Positions 1 through 5,333 of a stretch of DNA of 5,333 nucleotides are shown in pieces (the stretch's first letter is position 1; each line of letters begins with the position of its first letter). The stretch is from a virus (lineage: Duplodnaviria; Heunggongvirae; Uroviricota; Caudoviricetes). The position numbers and the translations under genes were made by a program. The DNA lies in IMG/VR virus record IMGVR_UViG_2548876863_000010, positions 1-5,333 of that record. One strand, given 5' to 3'. Under the pieces are notes generated by a model, which was not told the DNA's origin, did not search any database, and was given only the letters and a program-made list of their open reading frames with translations.

Positions 1-557
1 ATCCTGTTTACCTCTTTCTCAGGGAGTTTAGTCTCCAGGATTCCCGGGGCGGTTCATCGCGCCCTCAACAATGAGTTTTGTGATGCGGTGCCTGGTGCCT
101 CCAGGTGACGTTAACCAGTTAACAATTAACGCCGGATACAGAGAATCCACCCATAACACTGTTTTTGGTTTTAACTGTTCCGCGTGCGCTTAGCCGCATT
201 CACCGCATCACAAAATTCACTTTAAAAAGGGCGGCAGAGCAGTCACGGAGTAAAACTGATACCGCCAAACGTCACCAGAAAATTGATAACAGAGGGCGTT
301 GCAGCGGGGTTGTCACTTAAGCGTATGGTCAACCTGACAACCCGGTGTCCTCAAGGGGAAGGAATAACCCCGCCATACTTACCGCCGCGCCATTTCGCGG
401 AGTGCCACAACCGGAAGCGCACGTTCGAAGAAATCTAACGACAAGCCTTCTAAGGGAAAGAGCTTCGCCGTACGCTTTCGCGTTATGCCCTGACTTTTCA
501 GGGAAATATCCTTTCAGTAAACTGTCAGTACCGGATTCTTATCCGTGTCCGGCGCAC

Positions 558-591
558 GACCACACGTGACAGCGTGTTGGTCTCCATTTTT
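558..591 (+). terminator. Possible intrinsic terminator (imperfect hairpin plus T-run)
   Basis: GACCACACG (558-566), 6-nt loop, CGTGTTGGTC (573-582), then TTTTT at 587-591, just upstream of the 618 ORF. The stem is imperfect (needs a bulge). Confidence 0.25.
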
Positions 592-617
592 AACCCAGAA
601 CCTCAATGGAGGATAAA

Positions 618-827
618 ATGCCAAACAAAAAAAGAAATCCGCTTATTGAAAAACAGATTGAATGCCTGGTAAATCAACTCAGGCAATCAGGGTTATTAAA
701 AACTCATTCAGAGTTGAGGCTCACAGAATCAGCATTCGACGATAAATTAAATAATGTCCTTTATAATGGCATTATTGATTTTAATCGTTCTGTTGGTCGC
801 CGCGGCCCTGCTGGTGTTTCCTTATAA
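618..827 (+). CDS. Hypothetical small protein (69 aa from ATG 618; track ORF starts at 606)
   Basis: ORF 606-827 in the track. ATG 618 is preceded by GGAGG (608-612) at 5-nt spacing; ATG 606 has no SD. AT-rich. The C-terminal 13 aa (RSVGRRGPAGVSL) look like off-frame translation of a hydrophobic segment encoded in the +1 frame (see findings). Convergent with and abutting the 216-aa gene (stop 825-827 vs stop 828-830). Confidence 0.35.
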   Translation: MPNKKRNPLIEKQIECLVNQLRQSGLLKTHSELRLTESAFDDKLNNVLYNGIIDFNRSVGRRGPAGVSL

Positions 828-1478
828 TTACCAGTCAATCCAGAGTGGACCGTGTTCAGCGTAAATATAACTGTACACATCCAGATTATATTTGTGGTCT
901 GTTAAGAACAGGCCGCAAATACATGCCGAAGCTTCCAGTGCAGCGGCTCTGTTACTGAATAACCATGTAGCAACATTCCAGCGTTTTTCTGCATCCCAGT
1001 CTTTCTCAAGGCCTGATACCATGAAGAAACCGTTAGTGTTGCCATCAAATAATTCTGTTTCCAAATTTTTAAGCAATGCCTGATGGACTCTTGCCAGGTA
1101 TTCCGCCGGAATTTCGCCACGAATTCTGATGAGATTGTCATAAACAAACATGTTCCCCGCATATGGCGATTTTTCTTTCTTGTTTTTTAAACCAGCATCA
1201 TGAGCAAACTGATCAATTTCTTCTTCCGTTGGTTTCGTATTGATGTTTTGCGCTGTCGTTTCTGCAATTTTATTTGCCACACTCTCTGAGTCGTGTTTAT
1301 TTATAGACGCACAGAAATACAATCCGGTAAACGCATCGCGCACATTACGAGCCATATTATCAGTGTCTTTTTTCGTTACCGATTCCAATTCAAGTTCGTT
1401 CAGACGATGACGAAGTGTGTGTGCTGCAATCTCCTGGATTGAAGGAGGTAAATCTTTAAATTCCATCGTCAACCTCAT
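828..1478 (-). CDS. Hypothetical protein, 216 aa (212 aa if started at internal ATG 1466..1464); no recognisable domain
   Basis: Longest ORF in an AT-rich block. The internal ATG (codon 5) has GAGG 6 nt upstream. The first ATG overlaps the TGA stop of the upstream 50-aa ORF by 1 nt, suggesting translational coupling. Charged, soluble-looking, non-repetitive sequence with no Walker, HxH or HTH motif that I can see. Confidence 0.7.
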   Translation of the reverse strand: MRLTMEFKDLPPSIQEIAAHTLRHRLNELELESVTKKDTDNMARNVRDAFTGLYFCASINKHDSESVANKIAETTAQNINTKPTEEEIDQFAHDAGLKNKKEKSPYAGNMFVYDNLIRIRGEIPAEYLARVHQALLKNLETELFDGNTNGFFMVSGLEKDWDAEKRWNVATWLFSNRAAALEASACICGLFLTDHKYNLDVYSYIYAEHGPLWIDW

Positions 1479-1630
1479 CAGTCAGTGTTTCTGGCTAACC
1501 AGCGACGCGCGCCAGCTTCAGTTTTAAACGTTTTGCTTTTGGTATACGTCATCGCGGTGAACGTACCGTCCTGGTTGGGGAACACGCCACATACCAGAGA
1601 TTCGTTGTTGCCAAGATTGAGCGTATCCAT
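1478..1630 (-). CDS. Small conserved prophage protein, 50 aa (MDTLNLGNNESLVCGVFPNQDGTFTAMTYTKSKTFKTEAGARRWLARNTD); possibly YdaF-like
   Basis: Not in the ORF track because it is under 60 aa. ATG at 1630..1628 is preceded by GAGG at 6-nt spacing; stop TGA at 1480..1478. It is the first gene behind the PL-like promoter. The resemblance to the ~50-aa YdaF/DUF1391 prophage family is recalled from memory and unverified. Confidence 0.55.
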   Translation of the reverse strand: MDTLNLGNNESLVCGVFPNQDGTFTAMTYTKSKTFKTEAGARRWLARNTD

Positions 1631-1703
1631 GTTGACCTCATTTGCCCTTAACGCCGGGGGGCGGAACTAAGACCTGTCGCACCGTTGTGCTTTGATGGGA
1701 TAT

Positions 1704-1732
1704 ATTGTTCTCTTAAGATGAACATATGTCAA
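1704..1732 (-). promoter_or_regulatory. PL-like early-left promoter with embedded inverted-repeat operator candidate
   Basis: On the minus strand: TTGACA (1732..1727), 17-nt spacer, AACAAT (1709..1704). The spacer contains TGTTC-N9-GAACA (1724..1706). The module is about 80 percent identical to the PR-like module at 2234-2262. Confidence 0.45.
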
Positions 1733-1753
1733 CATTGTGAATGCGCAAGAGGC

Positions 1754-1785
1754 AAAAAAAACCGCCTTCCGGCGGTATTGTTTTG
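1754..1785 (-). terminator. Rho-independent terminator downstream of the repressor gene (hairpin flanked by A-run and T-rich tract, so possibly bidirectional)
   Basis: CCGCC (1762-1766), loop TTCC, GGCGG (1771-1775). On the minus strand the hairpin is followed by 8 T (complement of the A-run 1754-1761), 22 nt past the repressor stop. On the + strand it is followed by TATTGTTTTG. Confidence 0.65.
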
Positions 1786-1797
1786 TAAAATAAAGAA

Positions 1798-2187
1798 TTA
1801 TTTTTGTCGCGTTATTGGGTCAACGTATTCTGAGTAAAATTCGGTCAGTTTTTGAAGGCGCATTTGAAAAGCTGCCAGCATATTTCTACGCTCTACAGGT
1901 GGCAGGTTTCTGTAAACATCAAGCAGGGCTTTCTCATCATCATCAAGCGCCTCTCTGTTTGTATCTTCTTTTCCTGTCAGTAGCCAGGAAAGGGAAACAT
2001 TTGTCGCTTCTGCAATTTTGGCTGCGGAATCTTTACTGATTGTCCCTCTTTTTTTCCAGGCGTTGACTGATGAGCGTCCTACACCAGCGATGCGCGCTAA
2101 ATCTGAACCGCTTAAATGATGCTGTTGCGAGATCGTATCTAACCTTTCTGCCAGCGGGGTGTCGTATTGCTTTTTTCTCATGTCCAT
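1798..2187 (-). CDS. Prophage repressor, DicA-like XRE-family HTH protein without a peptidase S24 domain (129 aa)
   Basis: HTH segment LSGSDLARIAGVGRSSVNAWKKRG...NVSLSWLLTG. The short acidic/helical C-terminal tail resembles the DicA architecture (from memory). Divergent from the cro-like gene. No SD; TATAAT sits 6 nt upstream of the ATG. Confidence 0.85.
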   Translation of the reverse strand: MDMRKKQYDTPLAERLDTISQQHHLSGSDLARIAGVGRSSVNAWKKRGTISKDSAAKIAEATNVSLSWLLTGKEDTNREALDDDEKALLDVYRNLPPVERRNMLAAFQMRLQKLTEFYSEYVDPITRQK

Positions 2188-2193
2188 TTAGCA

Positions 2194-2222
2194 ATTATAA
2201 CCGTTCAGTGAACACTAACAAT
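2194..2222 (-). promoter_or_regulatory. Repressor maintenance promoter (PRM-like), likely producing a leaderless mRNA
   Basis: On the minus strand: TATAAT at 2199..2194, then 6 nt (TGCTAA), then ATG at 2187..2185. A weak -35 candidate TTGTTA lies around 2221..2216. The palindrome GTTCAgTGAAC (2203-2213) sits in the spacer. Confidence 0.45.
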
Positions 2223-2233
2223 TCCTCGTAGTG

Positions 2234-2262
2234 TTGACTTATGTTCTCTTTAAGTGAACAAT
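2234..2262 (+). promoter_or_regulatory. PR-like early-right promoter with embedded inverted-repeat operator candidate
   Basis: TTGACT (2234-2239), 17-nt spacer, AACAAT (2257-2262). The spacer contains TGTTC-N9-GAACA (2242-2260). GGAGG at 2281-2285 precedes the cro-like ATG at 2290. Confidence 0.5.
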
Positions 2263-2289
2263 GTTGTGGCTGATTGAATTGGAGGTTGT

Positions 2290-2565
2290 ATGACAGCATT
2301 GGACAAGGCAATAAAGATTGCTGGTGGTATTCGTCCGCTAGGGCGTGCAATAGGGGCTTGGCCGTCTCAAATACACAAATGGGCAAATGAATACAATGGT
2401 CGAGTGCCGACAGGGGAGCGGGTTCGTCAAATTTATATTGCAACTGGGGTGACTCCTCATGAATTGCGACCAGATTTATATCCGAATCCAACCGACGGGT
2501 TGCCTGCTGGAGATAAGGCTAACACACAAAATACACCGGAGTTGATTCATGAAAATCAAGCATGA
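2290..2565 (+). CDS. Cro-like / YdaS-family HTH DNA-binding protein (91 aa)
   Basis: First gene rightward of the repressor. Strong SD (GGAGG). HTH-like segment ...GGIRPLGRAIGAWPSQIHKWAN.... Overlaps the next gene by 17 nt. Confidence 0.85.
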   Translation: MTALDKAIKIAGGIRPLGRAIGAWPSQIHKWANEYNGRVPTGERVRQIYIATGVTPHELRPDLYPNPTDGLPAGDKANTQNTPELIHENQA

Positions 2566-2974
2566 ACACATCCGCATGGCGATGAATGCTTGGGCGTATC
2601 CGGACGGTGAGAAAGTACCTGCAGCTGAAATAGCTCGGGCTTATTTCGAACTGGGGATGACGTTCCCGGAACTTTACGACGACAGCCATCCGGAAGCCCT
2701 GGCCCGTAATACCCAGAAAATTTTCCGCTGGGTGGAGAAGGACACGTCTGATGCTATTGAAAAAATTCAGGCGTTGTTACCGGCGATCGAAAAGGCGATG
2801 CCGCCTTTGCTGGTGGCCCGTATGCGCAGTCACAGTTCTGAGTATTACCGGGAGATTGTCGAACGGCGAGATCGGCTGGTGAAGGATGTCGATGATTTTG
2901 TTGCGTCAGCGGTCGTTTTATATGACCAGATAAATCGCGGCGGCCCGGCAGGGAATGCTGTGGTGATGCACTAA
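2549..2974 (+). CDS. YdaT-like prophage regulatory protein (cII-position protein; historically annotated as a toxin domain), 141 aa
   Basis: N-terminus MKIKHEHI... is typical of YdaT-family proteins in Rac-type prophages (from memory). GGAG lies 7 nt upstream. Operon position is between the cro-like gene and the replication gene. Confidence 0.8.
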   Translation: MKIKHEHIRMAMNAWAYPDGEKVPAAEIARAYFELGMTFPELYDDSHPEALARNTQKIFRWVEKDTSDAIEKIQALLPAIEKAMPPLLVARMRSHSSEYYREIVERRDRLVKDVDDFVASAVVLYDQINRGGPAGNAVVMH

Positions 2975-2996
2975 AAGCACGGTGTTCGGGGGTTTT

Positions 2997-3950
2997 ATGA
3001 GCAGCAAGCTTCATGGTCTTGTCTGGGAAGGGTGCGCCTTCACCGGCATGATCTTATCCAGGGTGGCAGTTATGGCCCGTCTTGCAGACTACAGCAATGA
3101 CGAGGGCGTGTCATGGCCTGCTATTGAAACTATCCGGCGTCAGATCGGTGCAAGAAGTGAATCCACCGTTAAATCTGCTATTGCAGAACTGGCGAAAGAG
3201 GGCTGGCTGACGAAGGAAGAGCGTAAGGTCGGTGGGCGTAATGTAAGCAATATCTATCGGCTTAATGTGGAAAAACTTGAAGCAGCTGCAGCGGCGGCGC
3301 GTGAGGCATATAAACCAAAAAGAAAAATTAGCCTGGCAAAAAATGACCCGTCAAATATTGACCCCTCAACGGTTGGCCCGTCAAATTTTGATGGATCAAC
3401 TGTTGATAAAAAACTGCCGATTAGGGGGGCGATGATTGACCCCGATCCGTCAGTATTAAAACCTGAACCGTCAGATAAAAGATCTTCTTGTCCGGACGTT
3501 TCACTGCCGGACGAAAAACAATCATCACCGGTTGAGCGATTTCTGGAGAAACACCCGGATGCGCATACCTGGAATGTCCCGAAGCGACAGTGGGGAACCC
3601 GGGAGGATTTGACGTGTGCACAGTGGATCTGGGGACGGGTTGTTGCGTTGTATGAACAGGCCGCCAGTGATGATGGGGAGGTATCACGCCCCAGAGAGCC
3701 TAACTGGACGACCTGGGCGAATGATGTGCGCATGATGCGTATGCTGGATGGACGTAGTCACCGACAGATTTGTGAAATGTTTGGGCGTGTTCAGCGGGAT
3801 TCGTTCTGGGTAAAAAACATCATGAGTCCGGCAAAACTCCGGGAAAAATGGGATGAACTGGTTATTCGCCTGGGGCGTTCGCCCGCGCAGCGTTGCGTGA
3901 ATCATATTTCTGAACCGGATACCGAAATTCCGCCTGGTTTCAGGGGGTAG
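2997..3950 (+). CDS. Phage replication initiation protein (N-terminal winged-helix DNA-binding domain; YdaU/O-like); alternative GTG start at 2982
   Basis: The track ORF starts at GTG 2982. ATG 2997 is preceded by GGGGG at 5-nt spacing and does not overlap the upstream stop at 2972-2974. N-terminal HTH-like region; central DPS/GPS repeat linker encoded by 15-bp tandem repeats (iterons). Immediately followed by the DnaC-like gene. Confidence 0.85.
   Translation: MSSKLHGLVWEGCAFTGMILSRVAVMARLADYSNDEGVSWPAIETIRRQIGARSESTVKSAIAELAKEGWLTKEERKVGGRNVSNIYRLNVEKLEAAAAAAREAYKPKRKISLAKNDPSNIDPSTVGPSNFDGSTVDKKLPIRGAMIDPDPSVLKPEPSDKRSSCPDVSLPDEKQSSPVERFLEKHPDAHTWNVPKRQWGTREDLTCAQWIWGRVVALYEQAASDDGEVSRPREPNWTTWANDVRMMRMLDGRSHRQICEMFGRVQRDSFWVKNIMSPAKLREKWDELVIRLGRSPAQRCVNHISEPDTEIPPGFRG
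3344..3403. repeat. Four tandem 15-bp iteron-like direct repeats inside the replication gene (candidate phage origin)
   Basis: TGACCCGTCAAATAT / TGACCCCTCAACGGT / TGGCCCGTCAAATTT / TGATGGATCAACTGT. Degenerate CCGTCAG-containing copies follow at about 3437-3475. An A-rich tract precedes (3311-3343) and a short one follows (3404-3412). Confidence 0.6.
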
Positions 3951-3956
3951 CGCACC

Positions 3957-4697
3957 ATGAAAAACATTACGTCAGGTGGTGTTCTGGCAAGAGTCAGCAG
4001 ATTTGTGCCGCAGGATGCAATCCCTCCGTACCGTACGGTGGCGGAGTGGCGGGAATGGCAGCTTGCTGAAGGGCGTAAGCGAAGCGAGGAGGTTAATCGT
4101 CTGAATCATCAGACGCGGGTTGAAAAAATCATTAACCGCTCCGGTATCCAGCCGCTTCACCGGAAGTGTACGTTCGGTAACTACCGGGTGCAGAACGATG
4201 GTCAGCGCCATGCCCTGAGTCAGGCGAAATCCATTGCGGCAGAGCTGGAAGGCGGCTGTACGAATTTTGTTTTCAGTGGCAGGCCTGGCACAGGAAAAAA
4301 CCACCTGGCGGCGGCTATTGGCAACCACCTTCTGGCGAAAGGTCGCAGTGTGATTGTGATAACAGTGGCGGATGTGATGCTGGCGTTACATGGCAGCTAC
4401 GACAACAAAAACTCGGGCGAAAAATTTTTGCAGGGATTGTGTGGCGTTGACCTGCTGGTACTGGATGAAATTGGCATGCAACGGGATACGCGTAATGAGC
4501 AGGTCACGCTGAATCAGATTGTTGACCGCAGAACGGCATCGTTACTCAGTGTGGGGATGCTGACAAATCTTAACCATGCAGCGATGAATACACTTCTCGG
4601 CGAGCGGGTGATGGACCGCATGTCCATGAACGGTGGTCGCTGGGTGACGTTTAACTGGGAGAGCTGGCGTCCGAACGTCAGCCAGCACAGGAACTGA
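3957..4697 (+). CDS. DnaC-like replicative helicase loader (AAA+ ATPase, IstB/DnaC family), prophage paralog, 246 aa
   Basis: Walker [16 protein letters not shown] and Walker B LLVLDEIG. Near-collinear resemblance to E. coli DnaC along its length ([54 protein letters not shown]), from memory. Confidence 0.95.
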
Positions 4698-4726
4698 GAA
4701 GTAATTTTTATCCGGAGGAAGTTTTA

Positions 4727-5333
4727 ATGGAAACCGTATTGCATGCACTGAAAGCGATGGGTAAAGCCAATTCTGTTGAACTGGCGGCGCGGCTTGATAT
4801 CAGCCGTGAAGAAGTTCTCAACGAACTGTGGGAACTCAAAAAAAATGGCGTTGTTGATAAAACGGGTCACACCTGGTTTCTGGCTGGTGAAGGTGAATCC
4901 GGGGTAACCGAAGAACAGCCAGCACAGTCTGAAGTACCGGATGTGCTGACCGGGGAGGTCGAACAAAAAGTTACTGCGGACATGATGATTGAGTTTATCT
5001 GTCAGGATGGGGCTAAAACGTGTGAGGAACTGGCGGATAAGTTCGGTGTTAGCATTCGCAAGGTTGCTTCCACGTTGGCGGTCGTAACAGCAACGGGGAG
5101 CCTGGCACGCGTAAATCAGAACGGTAAATTTCGTTACTGCATACCGGGCGCTGATTTACCGGCAGAGCCGGAAGCTGCATCGGTAACGGAAACCGATGGT
5201 AAAGCCTTTCCTCAGCCAACAGGTGTTGCGTTACCAGTCCGGGAAGCGGAAACACAGGAAGAAATAAAAACTGAAAGTGTGGCGGTCACAGTGCAGTCAC
5301 AGCCGTTGTTCACCAGAAAACATCCGGATGGTC
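4727..5333 (+). CDS. Hypothetical prophage protein, 3'-partial (runs off the window), with two winged-helix-like repeats
   Basis: ATG 4727 is preceded by GGAGGAA at 6-nt spacing. The frame is open to the end of the window (over 200 codons), which is why it is absent from the ORF track. Two similar ~40-aa segments ([28 protein letters not shown]... and [31 protein letters not shown]...). Confidence 0.75.

Follow-up and report, generated by a model that had tools for sequence, protein, structure and literature searches.

The window analyzed here, a stretch of 5,333 nt from the tailed-phage record IMGVR_UViG_2548876863_000010 (positions 1 to 5,333), is, as judged from its sequence, the immunity and early region of a Qin/Rac-type lambdoid prophage. 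Behind its early leftward (PL-like) promoter lies a locus that is best described as accessory cargo of unusual architecture in a repressor-adjacent hotspot. The locus very likely comprises the head of the early-left operon with a DUF1391 backbone gene, a chimeric gene for a protein of 212 amino acids (212-aa protein), and a mobile cassette of low G+C content formed by the C-terminal domain of this chimera (C-domain) and a convergent gene for a 69-aa protein with a structured leader. This anatomy, combined with a mechanism in which the two products are a cognate pair, is our best explanation for the locus as a whole, held with rather less than an even chance of being right in full; the functional model within it, which casts the 69-aa protein as a lysogen-side effector and the C-domain as its lytic-side cognate neutralizer, is drawn by analogy and is tentative at best. 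An earlier, sequence-only reading had singled out the stretch from 828 to 1630 as an AT-rich, translationally coupled two-gene cassette, made up of the 50-aa and 216-aa open reading frames (ORFs) directly behind the promoter. Both ORFs are present on the minus strand where that reading placed them (1478-1630 and 828-1478), and the finding is real as sequence, yet it was mis-assembled as a unit, and the object of interest lies partly outside those coordinates.

The moving and co-evolving unit is, from the sequence comparisons, the C-domain together with the convergent 69-aa gene and its leader (531-827). The 69-aa ORF has a GGAGG 5 nt ahead of its ATG, matches PHROG 4274 over its full length (E = 1.4e-51, profile positions 1-69 of 69) and shows a ratio of nonsynonymous to synonymous substitution rates (dN/dS) of 0.19-0.27, which denotes purifying selection; on account of this Shine-Dalgarno (SD) sequence, family membership and selection, it is taken to be a real gene. 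With a G+C fraction of 0.371 it surpasses every other segment in AT content, and its product is hydrophilic and without a membrane segment, with a grand average of hydropathy (GRAVY) of -0.53 and a maximum 19-residue Kyte-Doolittle value (KD19) of 0.22. Two distant relatives of the C-domain, P0141 (286 aa) and P0154 (220 aa), share 34-42% identity with it and have a wholly different N-terminal region, to which P0141 adds an Xre/CII-like helix-turn-helix (HTH) domain (HTH_3, with a match to the CII-like regulators of PHROG 4836 over the HTH). The genes of both directly follow cox in P2-type prophages with the order int-repressor-cox and are co-directional with the early operon. The same pair, with a different head and with or without the HTH, is found in Cox-type prophages of Salmonella and other enterobacteria, and every Cox-type locus encodes a 64-69-aa homologue of the window's small protein, convergent with the C-domain gene and overlapping its 3' end by 11-53 nt. 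The small protein reads MPNKKRNPLIEKQIECLVNQLRQSGLLK...GRRGPAGVSL in the window and ...IEKQIECIAEQLIKSGLLK...GRRGPAGVGL in Salmonella.

In all 67 IMG/VR loci with the small ORF, the C-domain gene is adjacent to it and convergent with it, and the identities of the two move together (100/100, about 85/83 and 46/41%), while the identity of the head ranges from 53 to 100% and varies independently of the pair. When pairwise identities of the one protein are set against those of the other across lineages, the correlation is r = 0.92. A query spanning both genes matched 600 of the 5426 complete Escherichia coli genomes on which all E. coli counts given here are based, and 594 of these 600 carry at least 80% of the query. 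The pair is also retained in another phage architecture, where the two genes are still neighbors and convergent at protein identities of 34-53%.

The chimeric 212-aa protein itself joins a helical head found in many proteins to a C-terminal alpha/beta domain. In an AlphaFold2 (AF2) model, the head forms a helical hairpin (helices 8-24 and 32-55), and the head alone matches PHROGs 1363, 9419, 6937 and 33007. A profile search of 1.84 billion cluster representatives returned one full-length cluster, two distant relatives of the C-domain and many head-only proteins; in about 50 cluster representatives, the head is followed by unrelated tails of 0-150 residues. The head shows dN/dS values of 0.36-0.69. 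The C-domain is predicted to fold as beta-beta-alpha-beta-alpha-beta, with a predicted local distance difference test (pLDDT) score of about 70-80 for the block, and its dN/dS of 0.14-0.18 reveals clear purifying selection. Its invariant residues are mostly hydrophobic or structural and include no conserved, catalytic-looking set of His, Cys or Lys, and a binding role is therefore favored. As an aside on the distribution of the head, a 147-aa protein with a MEFKDLP-type head (42% identity over 86 residues) is encoded by phage VT2phi_272 (L002, 5001-5444) and by some 70 Shiga toxin (Stx) phages, mostly Stx2a, deep in the early-left region and with no DUF1391 annotated nearby.

That the 50-aa and 216-aa ORFs instead form a translationally coupled, horizontally acquired moron is highly improbable, even though both lie behind PL, the large gene is AT-rich and the overlap on which the proposal was built can be read in the sequence. 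The longest ORF does span 216 aa, and the minus strand reads TGATG at 1480-1476, with stop and ATG sharing one base. However, the start codon in use is very probably the ATG at 1466 (codon 1466-1464), which yields a 212-aa protein beginning MEFKDLP. Several lines of sequence evidence support this assignment: a GAGG lies 6 nt upstream of this ATG, whereas the ATG at 1478 has no purine-rich motif or SD; the RefSeq PGAP coding sequence is of 212 aa; the profile of PHROG 2151, which matches over its full length (E = 1.9e-147, residues 5-216 against positions 1-212 of 212), starts at residue 5 of the 216-aa ORF; 21 of 21 aligned family members begin MEFKDLP; and so do the roughly 50 head-only relatives, even with ydfC instead of the DUF1391 gene upstream. 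The DUF1391 and 212-aa genes therefore lie 11 nt apart, without overlap; close coupling between them is possible, though not via an overlap; the TGATG overlap is almost certainly incidental, and coupling through it is probably an artefact of choosing the longest ORF.

The 50-aa ORF is, by its sequence, a conserved backbone gene rather than cargo. It matches the DUF1391 family (PF07151) with 103.8 bits against a cut-off of 27.3, over residues 2-48 of 50 and thus across the whole domain of about 48 residues, and it is 88% identical to K-12 YdfA and 84% identical to YdaF; the family belongs to the backbone of Qin and Rac and of most prophages related to them. Here, as in Qin, it heads the operon behind the repressor-controlled promoter (1704-1732); Rac differs in that ydaG sits between racR and ydaF. 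Among the 5426 genomes, 3830 match some part of window positions 600-2300, and many of the matching records have in common with it just a short segment that covers the DUF1391 gene and the first codons of the next gene. In the 67 IMG/VR loci, the identity and position of the DUF1391 gene vary independently of the 212-aa gene, ydfB and ydfC can come between the two, and no single DUF1391 allele was seen to occur strictly with the C-domain. The AT-richness claimed for the two-gene block holds for the 212-aa gene (G+C fraction 0.413), which is below the repressor gene (0.446) and the replication genes (0.515-0.538), but fails for the 50-aa gene (0.503), which is above the repressor; the low-G+C block spans 618-1466 and takes in the 69-aa gene on the other strand. 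Hence, the view of a variable accessory slot behind PL proved sound, and comparison of gene neighborhoods bore out a variable cargo at a fixed position, but the partner that travels with the large gene is the convergent 69-aa gene.

After DUF1391, the slot holds ydfB-ydfC in Qin, a convergent sieB in Rac, another pair in mEp460 and the 212-aa gene in the window. The leader of the 69-aa gene was found at 1576 places in 964 of the 5426 genomes, and, in prophages of E. coli, E. albertii, Salmonella, Edwardsiella and Pluralibacter, it precedes at least 12 unrelated ORF families. It is also present at loci L003, L007, L078, L079, L082 and L085-L088 and at many IMG/VR loci. All leader-borne cargo ORFs point against the direction of the repressor and early-left genes, and they fall into several PHROGs of unknown function; one such cargo consists of a 30-36-aa proline-rich peptide followed by a 156-aa protein with two transmembrane segments (PHROG 6315, unknown function). 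Each cargo type is matched one-to-one with a specific tail on the convergent MEFKDLP-head protein (for instance, 64 aa with 112 aa, 80 aa with 179 aa, 99 aa with 129 aa and 57 aa with 133 aa). Two conserved heads that face each other thus flank the variable DNA, the leader at one end and DUF1391 with the MEFKDLP head at the other, and a single recombination exchange in them can swap the 3' halves of both genes. Roughly one in six complete E. coli genomes has this slot, frequently in multiple copies; O157:H7 and further Shiga-toxin lineages are among them. Two observations on the arrangement of leader-borne cargo may be added. At L085, L086 and L088, the cargo composed of the peptide and the two-transmembrane protein is directly convergent with a CI-type repressor gene, and at L078 tandem copies of the leader are found in one contig (3227-3254 and 3898-3925).

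This pattern would also arise if two unrelated accessory genes were merely linked in a recombination hotspot and many of the tails on head proteins were read-through into the cassette. Within E. coli, the one-to-one match of cargo and tail, which holds for every cassette, could be the product of linkage alone, some of the tails are short, with as much as 131 nt of overlap with the cargo ORF, so that these may be mere read-through, and the partners can be separated at some loci (see below). Against this account, the C-domain, being folded and under selection, is no read-through tail, and the pair is kept in another phage architecture with another fusion partner; it is because of this persistence that the C-domain and the 69-aa protein are argued to be a functional unit. 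We therefore regard simple linkage as rather unlikely. Even if the two genes were unrelated morons, the region would still gain a corrected annotation, with another start codon, a two-domain structure and a DUF1391 identity for the 50-aa ORF. Conversely, the modular layout invites a more general hypothesis, in which a family of hot-swappable cognate-pair cassettes would combine the shared leader, as a riboregulatory element, with a dozen or more unrelated lysogen-side effectors that lie antisense to the early-left operon, each matched by a head-grafted C-terminal module that switches the effector off once the prophage, or a phage with the same cassette, turns to lytic growth. Such modular exclusion and self-immunity, with specificity exchanged by recombination in the two conserved heads, is unlikely.

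The leader is an 87-nt segment that is conserved where the surrounding DNA is not. It is composed of two hairpins and an anti-SD motif complementary to a segment that contains the SD of the small gene (Table 1). A consensus structure computed with RNAalifold retains hairpin 1 and the helix between anti-SD and SD. The sequence of hairpin 2 differs strongly among lineages, and a single hairpin fold with compensatory changes is seen in 9 of 12 unrelated sequence classes. In one allele, hairpin 2 is the exact reverse complement of that in the window (ACACGTGACAGCGTGT at 559-581 of the window versus ACACGCTGTCACGTGT in L065, L069 and L079); as read from the sequence, hairpin 2 is inverted in place, with the stem kept and the loop flipped. 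Three single-base variants pair as G-U on the plus strand only, and the mRNA sense is therefore favored. The SD is paired with a predicted probability of 0.78 (median of 37 distinct leaders, gathered by a pattern requiring hairpin 1 and both motifs, the invariance of which is thus partly by construction), and a CCUC closer to the SD competes for pairing with it in the window allele. The leader is accordingly predicted, from this modeling, to pair the ribosome-binding site (RBS) of the small gene. The segment at 531-617 matched no Rfam family. In other upstream contexts, -10-like hexamers lie directly ahead of hairpin 1.

Overlapping antisense gene pairs beside the lysogeny switch are known from Staphylococcus aureus prophages, where Tha and Ith are a defense protein and its inhibitor (PMC11087260). 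In that system, transcriptional interference makes the lysogenic and lytic states of expression exclusive, and the inhibitor averts autoimmunity (PMC11087260). The locus described here is similar in that two protein genes on opposite strands meet beside the lysogeny switch, abutting at 827/828 in the window and overlapping by 11-53 nt in the Cox-type prophages. By this analogy, the products of the window's two genes would be a cognate pair expressed in opposite states of the prophage. In a lysogen, PL would be repressed, leaving the small gene free of antisense transcription and its product synthesized at a low, leader-restrained level, and the small protein would serve as an accessory effector that acts against incoming phages by, for instance, exclusion or abortive infection. 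Firing of PL, upon induction or upon infection by a phage with the same cassette, would send antisense transcription across the small gene, and the 212-aa protein would be made at the same time, with its C-domain binding or neutralizing the small protein and thereby conferring self-immunity. The two systems differ in that they share no sequence or fold relationship, and no HEPN domain was found here, whereas the Tha/Ith effector is a HEPN RNase activated by phage tail proteins.

Several observations count against this proposal. Which partner is the effector and which the neutralizer is a guess, and compared with Tha/Ith the sizes are the other way round, with the small gene on the lysogen side and the large gene on the lytic side. 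Co-inheritance of the pair within E. coli could be mere linkage in a recombination cassette. No match to the 212-aa or 69-aa protein was obtained in Pfam, NCBIfam or PADLOC, and PHROGs provided families of unknown function only; no structural relative of the C-domain was found in PDB or BFVD; and the AF2 model of the 69-aa protein, composed of two helices and a disordered conserved tail, is of low confidence (pLDDT 56). A scan with the sigma-70 consensus returned no promoter for the small gene, and the candidate weak promoter listed in Table 1 falls under its threshold. Lastly, the partners can exist apart, as follows from two kinds of loci. In a baboon isolate, E. coli PapRG-04-4 (L011, 1058-2332), a 211-aa gene is kept while the small ORF is internally deleted, and in 12 loci a run of seven A residues in codons 4-6 of the small ORF (A7; 627-633, plus strand) is reduced to A6, resulting in a truncated protein of 17 aa. 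The A6 variants may be sequencing errors or slip-strand on/off variation, and small-ORF alleles of about 85% identity are without the A7 run. In L011, the 211-aa gene follows ydfA-ydfB-ydfC and a pseudogene fragment; the cassette can therefore insert downstream of Qin-type genes, and it can decay.

The same pairing evidence would be accommodated by the opposite polarity, in which the early 212-aa protein would be a host-directed toxic or takeover factor akin to DicB, Kil or YdfD, and the small protein, expressed in the lysogen, an antidote against leaky PL transcription or homotypic superinfection. Toxic early genes are a known feature of the dicBF operon (PMC10448788), which speaks for such a role. 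The C-domain, however, has no enzyme-like conserved residues, and neither a toxin-antitoxin (TA) family nor a PADLOC model was matched. Moreover, in type I toxin mRNAs, RBS sequestration typically restrains the harmful product, and an RBS-sequestering leader is more typical for such a product than for an antidote. The reversed roles are hence quite unlikely. We assign a similarly low probability to a regulatory accessory of the lysis-lysogeny decision, in which the C-domain would be a regulatory or oligomerization domain and the small protein a regulator set by convergent transcription. The HTH_3 domain of P0141 with its CII-like match, the location after cox in an early operon and the convergent promoters fit this idea, but a DNA-binding domain is missing from the E. 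coli version and from most of the Salmonella ones, the small protein bears no HTH or ribbon-helix-helix signature and yields just a low-confidence two-helix model, and the many unrelated cargos in the slot fit an accessory function better than core regulation. If the effector and cognate neutralizer proposed above are real, they would constitute a new protein family pair in E. coli prophage-encoded immunity, and the antisense "noncontiguous operon" logic known for Tha/Ith in staphylococci would reach into the enterobacteria as well; the shared leader would then also provide a simple sequence handle for finding a dozen more uncharacterized cargo genes.

Defense systems have been found time and again in the slots beside the repressor of temperate phages; RexAB, SieB, BstA and Tha are examples. 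The interval between cI and N in lambdoid phages, which holds rexAB in lambda, is a recognized mosaic hotspot, and BstA/aba, located beside the repressor, combines defense with cognate self-immunity (10.1101/2020.07.13.199331). The window's locus resembles both BstA/aba and RexAB as a variable accessory locus adjoining a lambdoid prophage repressor, and the proposed mechanism would share with BstA/aba the concept of defense with cognate self-immunity. However, bstA and rexAB lie downstream of cI and are presumably served by its promoter (10.1101/2020.07.13.199331), whereas in the window a terminator-like hairpin separates cI from a cargo that is antisense to PL; aba is a DNA element and not a protein, and the window's pair has no homology to BstA or RexAB. 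Antisense orientation has been described as characteristic of moron loci, and the sieB gene of P22 is associated with the sas antisense RNA (PMC7067206) and with an exclusion phenotype (PMC10883804). Rac has its sieB directly against the DUF1391 gene ydaF and convergent with it, in the same slot and orientation as the window's 69-aa gene, and SieB exemplifies a lysogen-expressed exclusion gene inside the PL region under antisense control. In contrast to SieB (PF14163), the 69-aa and 212-aa proteins have no Pfam match (Rac SieB, used as control, scored 1.5e-31), a BLAST comparison with Rac SieB came up empty, the small protein has no membrane segment, and the region upstream of Rac sieB contains no match to the hairpin-1 pattern. 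With the Qin operon ydfA-ydfB-ydfC-dicF-dicB, the window shares a DicA-type repressor, the promoter, DUF1391 as first gene and DicF/DicB downstream; unlike the window, Qin holds co-directional ydfB and ydfC in the slot, and these are unrelated to the 212-aa and 69-aa proteins.

Type I TA loci of Bacillus subtilis prophages, such as bsrG/SR4 and txpA/ratA, have convergent, 3'-overlapping transcripts and toxin mRNA leaders that sequester the SD. The window likewise has convergent units meeting at their 3' ends on a prophage and a small-ORF RBS that is predicted to be paired. The anti-SD is conserved in the motif-selected leader set, and a PL transcript would have to run in antisense to reach DicF. 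Unlike these loci, its small protein is hydrophilic and does not resemble the hydrophobic membrane toxins of type I systems, and its opposing transcript encodes a selected 212-aa protein rather than RNA only. A type II system is at odds with genes that are convergent and not co-directional, and no TA family was matched in Pfam, NCBIfam or PADLOC.

In accordance with the sequence-only reading, the large protein belongs to no family of assigned function, the one full-length match being PHROG 2151, and profile and structure searches linked it to no characterized housekeeping or structural family; the profile search for its 50-aa neighbor, which had been grouped with it, led to the known backbone family DUF1391. 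PADLOC-DB v2 contains no defense model matching the 212-aa or 69-aa protein, P0154, P0124, P0153 or the other cargo ORFs, and P0141 was matched through its HTH only. Sequence-profile searches of PDB were empty, the search of 1.84 billion representatives retrieved no annotated family, and a second profile search with the C-domain as query added only Salmonella relatives. A pattern scan for the small protein in one genome per species gave no match, and neither HEPN nor any other Pfam domain, nor a structural match, was found in the pair. In the literature, no account of the 212-aa and 69-aa proteins or of the leader was found. Two candidate relationships were set aside. Phage records label a neighboring gene "YdfB", but a YdfB/YdaG-like identity of the head was dropped after BLAST against K-12 YdfB, YdaG, YdfC and SieB revealed no relationship, and the ydfA of the IbfA paper, a plasmid gene, was judged irrelevant by its description and not by sequence comparison.

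Table 1. Coordinates of the features identified in the 5,333-nt window.
Feature	Position	Strand	Evidence or remarks
DicF small RNA	229-280	-	Rfam RF00039, 76.7 bits against a gathering score of 48
Candidate weak promoter, TTTTCA-17-TAAACT	495-523	+	By eye; 8 of 12 consensus positions; -10 ends 6-7 nt before the leader
Structured 5' leader, 87 nt	531-617	+	Conserved where surrounding DNA is not
Hairpin 1, CCGGAT...TCCGG	531-552	+	
Hairpin 2	559-581	+	
Anti-SD, CTCCATT	582-588	+	Complementary to AATGGAG at 605-611, which contains the SD
69-aa protein gene	618-827	+	PHROG 4274; convergent with the 212-aa gene, stop codons abut at 827/828
C-terminal alpha/beta domain of the 212-aa protein (residues 98-212)	831-1175	-	AF2, dN/dS, distant relatives
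Helical MEFKDLP head (residues 1 to about 60) and linker (61-97) of the 212-aa protein	1176-1466	-	PHROG matches, AF2
YdfA/YdaF-type DUF1391 protein, 50 aa	1478-1630	-	Pfam PF07151
PL/dicBp-type sigma-70-like promoter, TTGACA-17-AACAAT	1732->1704	-	Promoter scan
19-bp palindromic operator, TGTTC-N9-GAACA	1706-1724		Between -35 and -10 of the PL-like promoter
G+C-rich hairpin with T-runs on both strands, terminator-like both ways	1761-1776		Between repressor gene and PL
CI/DicA-like repressor	1798-2187	-	Pfam Phage_CI_repr, 1.8e-12
YdaS-type Cro	2290-2565		Pfam
YdaT-like protein	2549-2974		Pfam
O-like initiator with HTH	2982-3950		Pfam
DnaC/IstB-like loader	3957-4697		Pfam

The surroundings of the cassette are those of a Qin-like operon. 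Window positions 600-2300 recur in E. coli O157:H7 and a few other strains at 99.5-99.9% identity, and in one O157:H7 genome the prophage adjoins ompW and has the gene order int-xis-exonuclease-DUF1482-dicB ... repressor-cro-like-YdaT-like-replication. The repressor gave a sub-threshold match to the DicA-subfamily model of NCBIfam (38.7 bits against a cut-off of 101). The PL-like promoter named in the sequence-only reading is borne out by its hexamers and by an operator shared with the divergent PR-like promoter, where a second copy of the 19-bp palindrome (2242-2260) again lies between -35 and -10; the palindrome has 2 matches, versus 0.01 expected by chance. In K-12 Qin, dicBp is repressed by DicA, and DicF is processed from a polycistronic ydfABC-dicF-dicB transcript (PMC10448788). 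The presence of DicF, as identified from its sequence, marks the early-left operon of the window as one of the dicBF type, and positions 56-558 are 94% identical to the spacer ydfC-dicF-dicB of K-12 Qin. To reach DicF, the PL transcript must cross the small gene in antisense, and one of the two genes should therefore be on when the other is off.

A few minor elements complete the description of the region. The hairpin between the repressor gene and PL is the first terminator-like site ahead of any plus-strand transcript of the small gene. A strongly hydrophobic ORF of 36 aa (754-864, plus strand) occupies the +1 frame of the small-gene 3' end and extends into the 3'-terminal part of the 212-aa gene; E. 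coli alleles of about 85% identity keep it open, but the Salmonella versions lack it, and it is probably not a gene. Downstream of DicF, positions 77-217 on the minus strand gave a sub-threshold STnc100-like match (38.8 bits against a gathering score of 47), and this stretch is about 80% identical to a region of Rac beside kilS. Between the cassette and DicF, the early-left transcript contains a further hairpin (489-504, minus strand, CCCTGAAAAGTCAGGG), the first ten bases of which resemble the boxB of lambda, GCCCTGAAAAAGGGC.

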